A stretch of DNA of 56,406 nt from an uncultured Candidatus Saccharibacteria bacterium (GCA_964645245.1 CAZYBS010000004.1:1-56406); one strand, 5' to 3'; shown: positions 5,840 to 48,844, numbered from the stretch's first letter. The notes: a model not told the origin generated them from the sequence alone. Numbers and translations are program-made.

Positions 5840-5888
5840 CTTTTCTTAAGTTGTTTCCCAAATATTTTTAATATATTTAACGTTTATA

Positions 5889-5917
5889 TTGACAAATAGT
5901 AATAAGTCTGCTATTGT
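5889..5917 (+). promoter_or_regulatory. sigma70-like promoter driving island B
   Basis: TTGACA-17 nt-TATTGT in AT-rich DNA, about 20 nt before the GC-rich segment. GAGGAG SD before the ATG at 5967. Confidence 0.55.
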
Positions 5918-5966
5918 ATAAAGAAAGATTTTCCGTACATCACACTGTCCCTTTGAGGAGACCAGT

Positions 5967-6386
5967 ATGAAACTGATTTTGCTTGCTCTTTGTCTTTTCG
6001 CAGCTACCACCGCCTATGCCCAAGAGGAACCGATCCCACTGGTTTCGGGGAGTGTGTGGCTCGACCTCTTCATAGGTCCGGACGGCGCAGTAGTCTACCC
6101 ACAATACTCGTTCAAGGTGGACGGGTTGCGGATGGTCGTGACAGGCTACGGGTTCTGGGAGAAGGCTCCTGGTGAACCTGACTTCACCAACCACGTCAAC
6201 ACGTTCAACCTGGCACGGCTTCCGTATTTTTCTTTGCGGACGGAAATCGGCGGCCGGGTACGGAAGTTCACAGTCGACACGGCCGCTGGTTCTGTCAGCG
6301 TGCCACCTGCCGGGTTCTTCCAGGCTGGTCCGCAAGCCAACCTGCACCAGGTGTTTCCGCTCAAAGGGATGGATATTACCTGGTAG
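5967..6386 (+). CDS. secreted beta-rich protein, island B ORF1 (139 aa)
   Basis: Gram-negative-type signal peptide MKLILLALCLFAATTAYAQ. Alternating hydrophobic beta-strand pattern; GC-rich. Confidence 0.5.
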   Translation: MKLILLALCLFAATTAYAQEEPIPLVSGSVWLDLFIGPDGAVVYPQYSFKVDGLRMVVTGYGFWEKAPGEPDFTNHVNTFNLARLPYFSLRTEIGGRVRKFTVDTAAGSVSVPPAGFFQAGPQANLHQVFPLKGMDITW

Positions 6387-6643
6387 TGTCTTACTTGCCA
6401 GCCCTGGCTGGCATCCGCCCGAATAACACGATTCTTGCGGGCGGTACGCGGAAATTTGGACTTGGTTCCACTCTGGCGGTCTCCGGGGAAGGCTACCGTC
6501 GCTTCTTTCCGGATGGGGCAGACTACAGTGAGTTCTGGATGTTTGTCGGGGTAGAGCGCATGAAGCACTTCACGCCGGCGGTCTTCATTCTCACTGACGG
6601 AGAGGCGAAGAGCTTCGCCATCGGGGGCAGGTTTTCTCCGTGA
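6386..6643 (+). CDS. island B ORF2 (85 aa): coupled ORF or frameshifted C-terminal half of ORF1
   Basis: The GTG start overlaps the TAG stop of ORF1 (TAGTG). The beta-strand pattern continues and ends in ..FAIGGRFSP. Confidence 0.35.
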   Translation: MSYLPALAGIRPNNTILAGGTRKFGLGSTLAVSGEGYRRFFPDGADYSEFWMFVGVERMKHFTPAVFILTDGEAKSFAIGGRFSP

Positions 6644-6652
6644 AACAAAATC

Positions 6653-6685
6653 GGGCAATCGTTCTCTTAGTGGGAGCGATTGCCC
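6653..6685 (+). terminator. hairpin terminator of island B
   Basis: GGGCAATCG/CGATTGCCC 9-bp stem, 10 nt after the stop. Weak T-tract. Confidence 0.5.
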
Positions 6686-6743
6686 CCACTATTTAGTTTA
6701 TATTTTCTTTGTGAATTAATTGTGGGATAATAAATAGGCATGA

Positions 6744-8969: not shown

Positions 8970-9052
8970 GCGCGGGTGGAGAAACGGTAGACTCGCCATC
9001 TTGAGGTGGTGGTGCCTGTAAAGGCGTGGAGGTTCAAATCCTCTCCCGCGCA
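8970..9052 (+). tRNA. tRNA-Leu (anticodon GAG)
   Basis: Acceptor GCGCGGG/CCCGCGC, loop TTGAGGT, long variable arm TGCCTGTAAAGGCGT, T-loop TTCAAAT. Confidence 0.8.
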
Positions 9053-9131
9053 CAGACAACCTAACTTTTTTTTGTATTGATTTTTTATTTAAATATAGGT
9101 ATTCTTTTTCTAAACGTACACAGGGAGGATT

Positions 9132-9350
9132 ATGTCCACGGACGAAGAAAGTGCTCGGAGTCTATTGGTGAGTCAAGGGTTCAAGAAATTTACCCTTACA
9201 TACGATCCGGACGCCCTTCTGGGCATGCGGTGGTGGTGCTCAATTCGTGGCGTTTGGGCGCCAGTCCTACATGGTAGGGCCGAGGACTGGGGTTTTACCG
9301 CTATGGATGCCGTACTCAAGGCGTTGGCGTGTGGCCCAAGAAGGGAGTGA
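9132..9350 (+). CDS. hypothetical small protein, island C (72 aa)
   Basis: GGGAGG SD just upstream, GC-rich, followed by the 9358-9386 hairpin. No recognisable motif. Confidence 0.4.
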   Translation: MSTDEESARSLLVSQGFKKFTLTYDPDALLGMRWWCSIRGVWAPVLHGRAEDWGFTAMDAVLKALACGPRRE

Positions 9351-38459: not shown

Positions 38460-39017
38460 ATGGTTAAATTTATTCTTGGGAAAAAACAAAACATGACTCA
38501 GTATTTTTCCGAGGACGGAAAAGTAATTCCAGTTACTTTATTGCAGGCCGGTCCGGTAACGGTGGGTCAAATTTTTCAGAAAGAAAAAGATGGTTATGAT
38601 GCTGTCCAAGTGGACTTTGCCTCACAGAAAAAAGAATTTAGATTAAAACCCTTGGATAAAATTGATGTTAAAAAAGGAGATGTAATTGATGTCTCAATTT
38701 TTGCTCCAGGCGACCGCCTTCAAGTTTCAAGTGTGTCCAAAGGTAAAGGCTTTCAGGGTGTGGTAAAACGTCATGGTTTTCACGGTGGTCCGCGTACCCA
38801 TGGTCAAAAGCATTCAGAAAGAGAAGCCGGAAGTATCGGCGGAGGTCTGCGAACTCACGTTCCGAAAGGCATGAGAATGGCGGGTAGAATGGGTGGCGAC
38901 AGGATTACCCAAAAGAATTTAACAGTTGTTTCTGTTGATAAAGAAAATAACATCATGCTGGTGAAAGGAGCAATAGCCGGCAAGCGTGGAAGTTTGGTGG
39001 AGATTATTAGTAGATAG
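38460..39017 (+). CDS. rplC: 50S ribosomal protein L3
   Basis: GKKQNMTQYF..SKGKGFQGVVKRHGF. Confidence 0.92.
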   Translation: MVKFILGKKQNMTQYFSEDGKVIPVTLLQAGPVTVGQIFQKEKDGYDAVQVDFASQKKEFRLKPLDKIDVKKGDVIDVSIFAPGDRLQVSSVSKGKGFQGVVKRHGFHGGPRTHGQKHSEREAGSIGGGLRTHVPKGMRMAGRMGGDRITQKNLTVVSVDKENNIMLVKGAIAGKRGSLVEIISR

Positions 39018-39054
39018 AGTTTTAGACTCTAGATAGAGGCTAAACCTCTATCTG
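39012..39054. repeat. 43-bp element (AGATAGAGG-CTAAA-CCTCTATCT hairpin plus flank), copy 1
   Basis: Perfect reverse complement of 48802-48844. Confidence 0.85.
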
Positions 39055-40018: not shown

Positions 40019-40858
40019 ATGAAGAGCTATAAACCGACAACTAAATCTAGAAGACAAATGACCAATGTATCTTACCGGGGAGTTTTGACGCGCTCGGAGT
40101 CAACCAAATCCCTTACTGCTGGTTTCAAGCGTTCACAGGGGCGAAATAGTCAAGGACGCATCACTATGCGGCACAAGGGCGGAGGGCACAAGCGTCTTTT
40201 TCGAGATGTGGACTTTTTATATAACAAGAAAGAAATTCCGGCCAAAATAAAGTCTATTGAATATGACCCGAATCGCTCGGCTTTTATCGGGTTAGCTGTC
40301 TACCGAGACGGAGAAAAAAGATACGTGGTATTGCCAAAGTCCGTCAAGCCTGGGGATTCATTCACTGTATCTGATAAGGCGTCCTTAACAGCAGGCAACA
40401 GACTTCCTCTTAAAAATATTCCAGTCGGAACTTTTGTTTATAATATTGAAATCAAACCCAATGGCGGTGCGAAGATTGCCCGTTCGGCGGGAATTTTTGC
40501 GCAAGTAGTTGCTAATGCTGATGGATATACGAACATAAAAATGCCTTCATCCGAAATCAGAAAAATAAATGAAAACTGCTGGGCCTCTATCGGCACTGTT
40601 TCAAACGAAGAGCATCATTTGGAAAATTACGGTAAAGCTGGACGGTCTCGCTGGAAAGGAATCAGGCCGACAGTTCGCGGTACGGCCATGAACCCGGTAG
40701 ACCATCCATACGGAGGCGGAGAAGGCAGACAGGGTCGCGGAACCAAGCGTCCAAAGACAATGTGGGGCAAAGTTACCGGCGGACGCAAAACCCGCGGTCC
40801 AAAGAAATACTCAAATGTGTTTATCATCTCCCGCCGCAGGACTGGGAAGAATAAATAA
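40019..40858 (+). CDS. rplB: 50S ribosomal protein L2
   Basis: RGTAMNPVDHPYGGGEGR motif. Confidence 0.96.
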   Translation: MKSYKPTTKSRRQMTNVSYRGVLTRSESTKSLTAGFKRSQGRNSQGRITMRHKGGGHKRLFRDVDFLYNKKEIPAKIKSIEYDPNRSAFIGLAVYRDGEKRYVVLPKSVKPGDSFTVSDKASLTAGNRLPLKNIPVGTFVYNIEIKPNGGAKIARSAGIFAQVVANADGYTNIKMPSSEIRKINENCWASIGTVSNEEHHLENYGKAGRSRWKGIRPTVRGTAMNPVDHPYGGGEGRQGRGTKRPKTMWGKVTGGRKTRGPKKYSNVFIISRRRTGKNK

Positions 40859-40865
40859 AAAGTAT

Positions 40866-40938
40866 AACCCCTCCCTAACCCTCCCCTTATCAGGGGAGGG
40901 TTTTACGTTTCCCCCTGACAAGGGGGATTTGGGGGGTT
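40866..40938 (+). repeat. CCCCTCC/GGAGGGG three-way-junction repeat element (includes the rplB terminator)
   Basis: Outer AACCCC/GGGGTT. Inner hairpins CCCTCCCC-TTATCA-GGGGAGGG+TTTT (40879-40904) and CCCCCT-GACA-AGGGGG. Confidence 0.6.
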
Positions 40939-41022
40939 GTATTATTCTACAGATGTTATAGACTTTAAATCGAAGTTCACCCGTTAGTTTCGTTCACGTA
41001 CGTTGTTGGCGGAGGTAGCTGT

Positions 41023-41205
41023 ATGAAAGATGGCAAAAGGCGTCGCGAGGCTCGTTTGGTAGCCAGCAAGGAAGTTGAGGCACGCAGGGCGGTCCAACAG
41101 GATGGCACTTCATCGGCCCCGCCGCCGCGCTATTTGCCGGGGACGCCACGACCCTGGCAGCCAAGGCAGGTTCGCCACGGGGACCAAGGGCGTCGGTGGC
41201 GCTAG
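41023..41205 (+). CDS. hypothetical Arg-rich small protein, island E (60 aa)
   Basis: GGAGG 7 nt upstream of the ATG. About 63% GC. Arg-rich (MKDGKRRREARL..). Followed by GAGAC/GTCTC and GAGGG/CCCTC hairpins. Confidence 0.3.
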   Translation: MKDGKRRREARLVASKEVEARRAVQQDGTSSAPPPRYLPGTPRPWQPRQVRHGDQGRRWR

Positions 41206-41295
41206 TTCCCCCACATTTTTCGTGAGACTCGCCATGGGTCTCGAGGGACGTCGTTCATTCGGCGCCCCTCTTCTTATTTATACTCAATATTTACA

Positions 41296-41325
41296 TTTAC
41301 TTTATTTTGCATAAAATGCTATAAT
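41296..41325 (+). promoter_or_regulatory. extended -10 promoter (TGCTATAAT) for the island E RNA
   Basis: TTTACT -35-like hexamer. TGCTATAAT at 41317-41325. Confidence 0.5.
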
Positions 41326-41330
41326 ACAAA

Positions 41331-41627
41331 TGGATCTGTTCTCAACCGGTTTCTCTCAGCCGGTCAGGTCCAGGAAGGGGATGTACGGCGTTGACGGATC
41401 ATCGACGGGAGCCTCCTAGGGTTGTGTGCTCCTCGGGGCGCACAGAAGAGGAACAAAGGGTTTGGGACACGGTGGCTGCCGTGATCCCTGACAGTCTCAA
41501 GGGGCCAGGATGGTCCCCGAAGGGAGTGTTCGAGCAGATGGTAGTGGCGGCTCAGAAGAAGTAGGGTCGCCAAGTTTGAGGGTGACTACACCCCTGGGGT
41601 CCAAGAACATCGGACCCCAGTTTTTTT
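41331..41627 (+). ncRNA. candidate ~295-nt structured GC-rich RNA of unknown class
   Basis: Own promoter. At least 5 local hairpins (41345-64, 41424-44, 41464-88, 41501-18, 41565-87). Strong intrinsic terminator CTGGGGTCC/GGACCCCAG + T7 (41594-41627). No convincing ORF. Confidence 0.45.
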
Positions 41628-41634
41628 ATTTTAA

Positions 41635-41722
41635 TTGACATTTTAGCCATATTTGCTAGTATGAAATAACACGAATACAACGAATCTAGTGCGAATGACA
41701 CGAATTCGTATCATTCGTTTTT
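41635..41722 (+). promoter_or_regulatory. TTGACA-16-TAGTAT promoter plus 13-bp hairpin/T-run leader upstream of rpsS
   Basis: Promoter 41635-41662. Palindrome CGAATGACACGAA/TTCGTATCATTCG 41692-41717, then TTTTT. Four CGAAT repeats. Confidence 0.5.
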
Positions 41723-41742
41723 ATTTGTAACCATTAGTGTTT

Positions 41743-42090
41743 ATGACTAGAAGTATCAAAAAAGGCATATATGTGGATGAAGGGCTGCTTCAAAAGATTG
41801 CCGGCAAAAACCCGCTGCAGACTCCGGCCATCAAGACCTGGAAAAGGGCCTGTGTTATATCTCCCGAAATGCTGGGTTTTACTTTTGGTGTTTACAACGG
41901 CAAAGTTCATGTAGATGTTCTGGTGACCGAAGACATGGTCGGGCACCGATTGGGAGAGTTTTCTCCGACCAAGAAATTTATAAAACACGGCGGAAAAATG
42001 CAGAAAGAACTTGAGCAAAAGAAAAAGGAAGCGGAAATAAATGCTGCCAAGGGAGCGACCGCTGCCGTAGCTGATGCGAAGAAAACATAA
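41743..42090 (+). CDS. rpsS: 30S ribosomal protein S19 with C-terminal extension
   Basis: MTRSIKKG start; GHRLGEFSPT motif. Lys/Ala-rich tail of ~25 aa. Confidence 0.9.
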   Translation: MTRSIKKGIYVDEGLLQKIAGKNPLQTPAIKTWKRACVISPEMLGFTFGVYNGKVHVDVLVTEDMVGHRLGEFSPTKKFIKHGGKMQKELEQKKKEAEINAAKGATAAVADAKKT

Positions 42091-48801: not shown

Positions 48802-48844
48802 CAGATAGAGGTTTAGCCTCTATCTAGAGTCTAAAACTCTATCT
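48802..48844. repeat. 43-bp element, copy 2 (inverted relative to 39012-39054)
   Basis: Perfect reverse complement of copy 1. Hairpin AGATAGAGG-TTTAG-CCTCTATCT. Confidence 0.85.

Follow-up and report, generated by a model that had tools for sequence, protein, structure and literature searches.

Structured elements at the 5' ends of bacterial mRNAs are well described: stem-loops located at the very 5' terminus stabilise certain transcripts, as in the 5' UTR of Escherichia coli ompA and the leaders of Bacillus subtilis aprE and ermC, and ribosomal-protein operons may carry autoregulatory leaders such as the S10 leader, which is bound by L4. Orphan small-protein genes and proto-genes represent a further, protein-coding category. 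So-called morons, as described for phages, are defined by insertion between adjacent conserved genes, by the possession of their own promoter and terminator, by deviating GC content, and by the presence of different units at the same hotspot (PMC2920897).

The spacer between rplB and rpsS in the 56,406-nt stretch of DNA that was analysed (hereafter the window) recalls phage morons in that its two cassettes, designated units 1 and 2, are located between genes that lie side by side in other genomes, carry their own promoter and terminator signals (as predicted from sequence), deviate from the genome in GC content (0.60-0.67 versus 0.40), and share their hotspot with different units in related genomes. 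Unlike morons, however, they sit in a ribosomal-protein operon of a cellular genome, that of a CPR bacterium, and not in a phage or prophage, and searches of the window's cassettes returned no phage or PHROG similarity. Their payloads are also tiny orphans, and it is the 5' and 3' non-coding modules, not the ORF bodies, that are conserved and reshuffled. The cassettes fit the category of orphan micro-protein genes: the cassette ORFs across the clade are short (median 53 codons, mostly basic), without homologues, partly disordered and subject to fast turnover, as is the case for other orphan genes and proto-genes, yet they differ from these in being tied to a single locus, where a conserved expression scaffold precedes them, and in being much GC-richer than the genome. 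They do not belong to any of the defence families searched. An analogy to integron cassettes was set aside, as the units have their own promoters while the palindrome that follows rplB occurs once per gap and not once per cassette.

The reading that we favour, with somewhat better than even confidence, is that the spacer represents two autonomous 'moron-like' orphan micro-gene cassettes positioned in a clade-wide operon break. According to this reading the spacer would consist of a palindromic terminator element, the two micro-gene cassettes, and the conserved promoter and leader of rpsS. Each cassette would be transcribed on its own, from an extended -10 through a structured 5' leader ending in an SD and a small orphan ORF of high GC content to 3' hairpins with an intrinsic terminator. 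The features of the locus are as follows:

40019-40858, + strand, rplB (ribosomal protein L2), the upstream flank (TIGR01171 rplB_bact, 373 bits)
40861-40943, + strand, nested palindromic element with an outer stem around two hairpins (MFE -51.6 kcal/mol, z -4.77)
40954-40962, + strand, putative extended -10 promoter-like site of unit 1, TGTTATAGA, with a weak -35 (read from the sequence)
40963-41022, + strand, 5' leader of unit 1, with CGTT repeats and the SD GGAGG at 41011-41015 (nhmmer profile)
41023-41205, + strand, ORF of unit 1, with an ATG start, 60 aa, Arg- and Pro-rich, net charge about +10 (ORF list; peptides AVQQDGTSSAPPPR, YLPGTPRPWQPR)
41212-41279, + strand, 3' module of unit 1, with UUUUCGUGAG, a hairpin at 41224-41242, a terminator hairpin at 41243-41270 and a U-rich tail (z -3.04)
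41296-41325, + strand, promoter of unit 2, TTTACT-18-TATAAT with a TG extension (promoter scan, 10/12 matches)
41331-41380, + strand, 5' leader of unit 2, with the outer stem GGAUCUG/CAGGUCC, an inner hairpin whose loop is related to UUYCCCAG, and the SD AGGAAGGGG at 41372-41380 (covariance model)
41381-41419, + strand, short out-of-frame ATG ORF of 12 codons that abuts the SD, its ATG lying 0-2 nt from it (sequence)
41391-41564, + strand, ORF of unit 2, with a TTG start and a TAG stop, 57 aa, about neutral, the proposed product (ORF list; peptides VWDTVAAVIPDSLK, GVFEQMVVAAQK)
41545-41627, + strand, 3' end of unit 2, with hairpins at 41545-41572 and 41580-41593 and an intrinsic terminator at 41594-41620 followed by U7 at 41621-41627 (z -4.68, 0/200 shuffles as stable)
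41635-41662, + strand, promoter of rpsS, TTGACA-16-TAGTAT with TG (promoter scan)
41664-41742, + strand, 5' UTR of rpsS, with CGAAT repeats and a terminator-like hairpin at 41691-41718, then a U run (z -3.01)
41743-42090, + strand, rpsS (ribosomal protein S19), the downstream flank (TIGR01050 rpsS_bact, 106.6 bits)

Much of this layout had been anticipated by the original prediction, which described a repeat element between rplB and rpsS (identified here as the nested palindrome), an Arg-rich ORF of 60 aa with GGAGG 7 nt upstream of its ATG at 41023, an extended -10 in unit 2 (TGCTATAAT at 41317-41325), a terminator composed of a 9-bp stem and T7 at 41594-41627, and a separate promoter for rpsS. 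All of these were found to be present; the extended -10 has TTTACT 18 nt upstream, the terminator was missed by a simple scan with a loop limit of 8, and the rpsS promoter was furthermore shown to be conserved in dozens of relatives. The description of two separate GC-rich units also held: GC content is 0.62-0.67 at 41000-41224 and 0.60-0.62 at 41375-41599, compared to 0.40 for the whole window, and each unit exhibits its own promoter-like and terminator signals.

Profile matches verified rplB as L2 and rpsS, from its ATG, as S19, and the wider flanks were found to encode L23 and L2 before the spacer and S19, L22 and S3 after it, i.e., the S10 ribosomal operon, in which rplB and rpsS are here separated by 884 nt. 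The window is a contig of Candidatus Nomurabacteria (Paceibacterota, CPR), and its closest rplB relatives are MAGs of the Nomurabacteria/Paceibacterota, with an amino-acid identity of at most 91%. The sample of relatives comprised 160 rplB-anchored loci from genomes and metagenomes. Among those with an rplB identity of at least 83% (n=51), the median rplB-rpsS gap was 399 nt (range 69-1650), with gaps of at least 250 nt in 36 loci and a GC-rich island in 19, while for distant relatives with an rplB identity below 63% (n=38) the median gap was 40 nt. Gaps of 7-60 nt were observed in many distant relatives, and gaps of 69-170 nt in several close ones. The original prediction had implied a unique insertion, whereas a long and variable gap is in fact the norm in this clade. 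Other cargo at the same junction in relatives includes genes for diacylglycerol kinase, rplJ-rplL (L10/L12), a mechanosensitive channel, ComEC and orphans, while loci L111 and L191 carry a HicA toxin module together with a duplicated 3' end of rplB. Because close relatives possess long gaps, and because the cargo at this one junction differs between them, the spacer most likely reflects a clade-wide break of the S10 operon in the Nomurabacteria lineage that serves as a hotspot for insertion and turnover; as a whole, this is a reading that we consider probable.

The GC-rich islands of the relatives repeat one layout: an AT-rich promoter that contains an extended -10 is followed by a short leader with secondary structure and a purine-rich SD, the ORF behind it is GC-rich, and the 3' end carries one or two hairpins ahead of an intrinsic terminator. 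The promoters, SDs, ORFs and terminators were intact in each cassette examined. Between species only the last ~70 nt of the gap, encompassing the rpsS promoter and its hairpin-plus-U-run leader, can be aligned. The bodies of the cassette ORFs were unalignable between species, including pairs whose rplB products are 85-91% identical, and the encoded peptides are of low complexity or disordered. The cassette ORFs of the relatives returned no Pfam, PHROG or PADLOC family, nor did an Rfam scan of 16 related loci yield a match.

Unit 1 is headed by a putative -10 at 40954-40962 that was not flagged by the consensus promoter scan; the ...GATGTTATA(A/G)T motif seen in this site also heads cassettes in L002, L087 and L004. 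Its leader, composed of CGTT repeats and CGGAGGT, recurs in L087 and in L083/L215, the nhmmer profile matching positions 40955-41025 of the window, 2991-3057 of L087 and 3374-3421 of L083. A profile of its 3' module matches L083, L215, L004 and L148 with E values of 1e-13 to 3e-14. The product of this unit would be the Arg/Pro-rich basic peptide of 60 aa, which in a word-indexed search of 5.8 billion proteins matched only itself. Its ORF ranked top of the six frames (z 1.9) in a codon model that was trained on the clearer cassette ORFs, chosen by eye; training-free 3-periodicity gave a p value of 0.40, and the folding z relative to shuffles was -0.60. Single-sequence AF2 modelling of the peptide returned a helix at residues 3-26 followed by coil (pLDDT 72). 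The peptides of unit-1-type cassettes are 23-33% identical and have no more than a loose pattern in common, in which the N-terminus is basic, the middle rich in Pro and the tail rich in Arg, and it is plausible that such basic peptides would function in nucleic-acid or ribosome binding.

A profile search identified a single close homologue of the L083 peptide, i.e., P0013 of locus L215. The two ORFs differ by six synonymous and six non-synonymous substitutions (pS 0.120, pN 0.040, pN/pS 0.33, from 12 substitutions) and by a single, in-frame indel of 18 nt, while the flanking non-coding regions differ at 3/81 and 2/200 positions, the non-coding ends being more conserved than the synonymous sites. 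Such a pattern suggests, from few substitutions and for a relative of the window's ORF and not that ORF itself, that the L083/L215 ORF is translated and under some constraint. The pairs L111/L191 and L004/L148 show at most one difference each and are too alike to inform on selection.

The L083/L215 comparison bears on the possibility that the cassettes are transcribed and yet largely functionless, representing decaying GC-rich foreign DNA or proto-genes on a conserved scaffold with near-neutral turnover. This would account for ORF bodies that cannot be aligned even between species with closely similar rplB, for their orphan status in each library searched, for low-complexity or disordered peptides, for an L083/L215 ORF that diverges faster than its non-coding flanks, and for a junction at which unrelated genes, among them a HicA toxin module, are gathered as well. 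It is less easily reconciled with expression signals and ORFs that are intact in all cassettes examined, with a GC content of 60-70% that, if unconstrained, should decay in a 40% GC genome, or with the pN/pS value and in-frame indel, which point to some amino-acid constraint, albeit from those 12 substitutions only. We consider this possibility rather unlikely. The elevated GC content of the bodies may possibly derive from a GC-rich source pool, from GC-biased recombination at a hotspot beside highly conserved genes, or from selection for mRNA stability.

The first ~65 nt of unit 2 (41328-41393) have homologues among the leaders of L087, L004/L148, L111/L191, L095, L002, L085 and L082. A covariance model, R1, built from eight sequences, matches nine loci (eight species, the window's included) with E values of 6e-6 to 5e-18, all on the + strand within the rplB-rpsS gap, and produces a single match in the 56-kb window. 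In the outer stem 88.5% of cells are paired and 8/11 pairs change on both sides; the covariation score was reached by 0/500 shuffles, and slid controls were at most 52% paired. The sequence AG(G/A)A(G/A)G follows directly 3' of the stem. As judged by these comparisons, the conserved leader is a 5' UTR that contains an SD, with an ORF behind it in each of the eight species in which it occurs. A scan of 185k genomes for the leader motif returned one true match, L191, which belongs to the same species as L111, among ~50 chance matches. Crude regex scanners for the leader and promoter were replaced by the covariance model.

In unit 2 the last nucleotide of the -10 is 41325 and the stem begins 6-7 nt further on, at 41331/41332; the spacing is equal in L004 and L087. 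The stem is thus predicted to begin at the 5' end of the transcript or no more than 1-2 nt from it, with a strong SD immediately downstream, and it is maintained by compensatory changes; in these respects it resembles the 5'-terminal stem-loops that stabilise bacterial mRNAs. It is unrelated to them in sequence, and the likeness is one of predicted geometry. Positioned at or beside the predicted transcript start and abutting the SD, the stem would protect the 5' end while keeping the SD exposed, and the result would be a stable, well-translated short mRNA. Masking of the SD by the leader loop was rejected by eye, as the two sequences, read antiparallel, do not complement each other. The inner-loop motif related to UUYCCCAG suggests an additional recognition function. 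Like ribosomal-protein autoregulatory leaders, the 5' UTR of unit 2 is conserved and structured and belongs to a cluster of ribosomal-protein genes, but the ORFs that follow it do not encode ribosomal proteins (no NCBIfam or Pfam match) and differ in every species, and no Rfam leader family matches it.

The original prediction regarded unit 2 as a free-standing structured RNA with no credible ORF, and on both counts the present results differ. A TTG-initiated ORF of 57 codons (41391-41564) starts 10 nt after the SD AGGAAGGGG, and unit 2 would most likely be an mRNA for the corresponding 57-aa protein. Since the ATG at 41381 lies too near the SD, translation is expected to start at TTG 41391, and the 12-codon ATG ORF is probably not the main start; analogous ATG ORFs of six and four codons are present in L087 and L095, respectively. 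In 8/8 leader-bearing cassettes the SD is followed, at a distance of 7-11 nt, by the start of an ORF with 31-59 codons. The start codon is ATG in L004, L111/L191, L002 and L085, whereas the window, L087, L082 and L095 have TTG or GTG. The chance of such an SD-coupled ORF in composition-matched shuffles is 0.04-0.13 per cassette, with a Fisher combined p of 2.3e-4, the eight cases being independent because their ORF bodies are unrelated. An open frame of 57 codons at 60% GC is by itself not rare (P about 0.055).

Codon usage also prefers the TTG frame, which in the codon model described above scores 5.0 versus -18 to -22 for the other sense frames and is the best of six (z 2.88, with 0.05% of shuffles as high), although the antisense frame is nearly as good at 2.1. 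The GC1/2/3 values of this ORF (.63/.48/.67) are like those of the clearer cassette genes, and its training-free 3-periodicity gave a p value of 0.10. A single-sequence AF2 model of the product contains two helices (pLDDT 73), which is compatible with a small helical protein and constitutes weak evidence for one. Apart from the self match of the 60-aa ORF, no homologue of either ORF was found in protein libraries of 5.8 billion and 1.84 billion sequences, nor did either produce anything significant in Pfam, NCBIfam, PHROGs, PADLOC or the PDB. Exhaustive HMMER searches linked the 57-aa ORF only to HYR and WD40 repeat proteins, through the summation of weak matches that were dismissed as spurious.

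It may be argued instead that unit 2 constitutes a new structured non-coding RNA of ~295 nt, extending from its own promoter to its own terminator, in which the SD-like purine run and the ORF are incidental. Both of these transcription signals are indeed present, the whole unit folds with a z of -3.26 on the + strand versus -1.37 on the - strand, the source annotation calls no gene in unit 2, the ORF depends on a TTG start and has a periodicity p of just 0.10, and the inner-loop motif of the leader has no explained role. The z of the whole unit is, however, due to the three 3' hairpins (z -4.68), and neither unit has excess structure outside its leader and 3' end; the 174-nt body at 41391-41564 folds much like its shuffles (z -1.41, 19/200 folding as well). 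Furthermore, nhmmer and blastn searches of the 160 rplB-anchored loci detected the leader alone and no similarity to the body, nor was any found in viral contigs or in phage or plasmid collections; within unit 2, homologues are restricted to the 5' leader (41331-41372), which covaries. As the body has no detectable homologues, no conserved structure can be demonstrated for it. In L004, L111, L002 and L085 the ORF behind the leader begins with ATG and is correctly spaced from the SD, which, together with the codon preference for the TTG frame, speaks against an incidental ORF.

Database comparison is in agreement with this. The earlier failure to match RNase P, tmRNA, 6S or SRP consensus elements was reproduced and extended, as a scan against Rfam 15 (including these families, riboswitches and ribosomal-protein leaders) returned no gathering-level match of any kind in the gap. 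At E<=10 on 40700-41900 the best hit reached 19 bits, compared to cut-offs of 34-154, and none covers 41340-41630, while ARAGORN identified five tRNAs and no tmRNA in the window. A likeness of GGUCAGGUCC-GGAAGG to the helix 8 motif of SRP RNA was also considered and discarded, there being no match to an SRP model. Taking both sides into account, the non-coding RNA explanation is judged unlikely. For unit 2 as an mRNA, the 3' hairpins would be expected to serve in transcription termination and RNA stabilisation.

The way in which the two units are distributed among relatives is also informative. In the window the unit-1 leader, ORF and 3' end are followed by the unit-2 leader, an ORF and its own 3' end, while L083/L215 possess the unit-1 type alone. 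L004/L148 represent a chimera of the unit-2 leader, a unit-1-like ORF tail (PRPWQ) and the unit-1 3' end, L087 has the unit-2 type ahead of the unit-1 leader, i.e., in the opposite order to the window, and L002, L085, L095, L082 and L111 combine the unit-2 leader with unrelated bodies. Neither unit type is present in most relatives. On account of this mosaic of 5' and 3' modules from species to species, the sequence data argue for recombining expression modules as opposed to a co-evolving RNA-protein complex. A dedicated RNA-protein module in which the Arg-rich peptide of unit 1 partners the unit-2 RNA, as had been speculated, would be in keeping with the adjacency of the units in this genome and with the highly basic nature of the peptide (about +10). 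The unit types nevertheless occur alone, reversed or chimeric in L083/L215, L002, L085, L095, L082, L111, L087 and L004, without consistent co-occurrence, and the body of unit 2 is not conserved, rendering such a module extremely improbable.

The reuse of these modules may also be interpreted more ambitiously, with the rplB-rpsS junction acting as a dedicated expression slot in which a conserved promoter, the covarying leader with its UUYCCCAG-related loop motif and the 3' hairpin modules are employed for ever-changing GC-rich payloads. Such payloads, e.g., host-interaction or anti-phage peptides or RNAs, would be captured or diversified on purpose, and the leader would represent a new class of cis-regulatory RNA that recognises some factor; in one variant, the payload of unit 2 acts as RNA. 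This we regard as quite unlikely.

If the favoured reading of two micro-gene cassettes in a broken operon is true, CPR bacteria with tiny genomes tolerate a break in the near-universal S10 operon, and this break is a hotspot at which small, strongly signalled and compositionally foreign genes come and go. It would furthermore entail an uncatalogued 5' leader RNA that is conserved across species although its cargo is not, and would provide a concrete, testable case for the origin or exchange of orphan micro-proteins in streamlined symbionts. Unit 2, being unannotated in the source assembly, would illustrate that small genes of this kind are missed by annotation pipelines. The locus yields neither a new housekeeping RNA nor a new RNA-protein machine; a conserved leader with hypervariable GC-rich cargo at a fixed locus represents new detail, and nothing points to new machinery.

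The two ends of the spacer display variation of their own. The palindrome at 40861-40943, which is probably either the terminator of rplB or a REP-like element, occurs once in the window, and related copies are present in the same gap of L005, where the order of the inner hairpins is swapped, and of L008, L085 and L027. At the opposite end, the rpsS 5' UTR of relatives carries a different hairpin-plus-U-run, AAGCUCGUUAGGAGCUUUUUU.

Three of the cassettes that carry the unit-2 leader, i.e., the covarying 5' stem that ends in the SD, possess a very short ATG ORF at that SD, namely those of the window and of two of the rplB-anchored related loci, L087 and L095:

Window 41381-41419: short ATG ORF, 12 codons
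L087 2731-2751: short ATG ORF, 6 codons
L095 gap 134-148: short ATG ORF, 4 codons

In each of these cassettes the long ORF begins 7-10 nt further on, at a TTG or GTG of the +1 frame, a recurrent layout that could represent translational coupling or regulation.

The rplB-rpsS junction was also found to harbor other cargo among the relatives, as follows:

L111 3397-3928 (also in L191, same species): HicA toxin gene insert (Pfam PF07927, E 3.5e-10)
L060 5638-6544: rplJ-rplL
L027 8036-8428: diacylglycerol kinase gene
L015 5572-7062: comEC

The HicA insert is positioned at the rplB 3' end, where the hicA gene is preceded by a 98-aa ORF that may encode its antitoxin, and beyond the insert the rplB 3' end is present a second time, as a duplicate of ~100 nt. 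The last three loci belong to more distant relatives, in which rplJ-rplL, the diacylglycerol kinase gene or comEC occupies the junction, so that rearrangement of the S10 operon at the rplB-rpsS point extends across a wider group.

The rpsS 5' UTR of the window (41664-41742) contains, shortly before the start codon, a hairpin that resembles a terminator and leads into a U run. CGAAT/ATTCG repeats make up this hairpin in the window, and in most relatives it reads AAGCUCGUUAGGAGCUUUUUU (e.g., L148 3835-3860); together with the U run it may act as an attenuator that controls the split S10 operon in its distal half. The source annotation places the rpsS start at 41773, 10 codons downstream of the ATG at 41743, giving a product of 105 aa. 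This public start call looks too short, because the S19 model aligns with the ORF opened by ATG 41743 from its very first residue.

Elsewhere in the window, two further GC-rich orphan loci were observed:

5880-6700: GC-rich orphan gene (GC up to 0.65)
5967-6386: 139-aa ORF within it, N-terminus signal-peptide-like
8970-9053: tRNA-Leu(GAG), ARAGORN
9132-9350: 72-aa GC-rich orphan ORF with SD and terminator

The orphan gene at 5880-6700 has a TTGACA promoter and a terminator of its own, and searches of Pfam, PHROG and PADLOC returned no match to it. By eye, its 139-aa ORF seems to run on in a different frame to 6643, and this would imply a frameshift or a pseudogene. The tRNA-Leu(GAG) gene, found by ARAGORN, is absent from the list of the Rfam gathering-threshold scan, and the 72-aa ORF directly downstream of it may be another insertion adjoining a tRNA gene.

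Finally, a 43-nt intergenic repeat of double-hairpin form is located in the rplC-rplD gap (39012-39054), with a perfect inverted match 9.7 kb downstream (48802-48844); it differs from the nested palindromic element directly after rplB (40861-40943).
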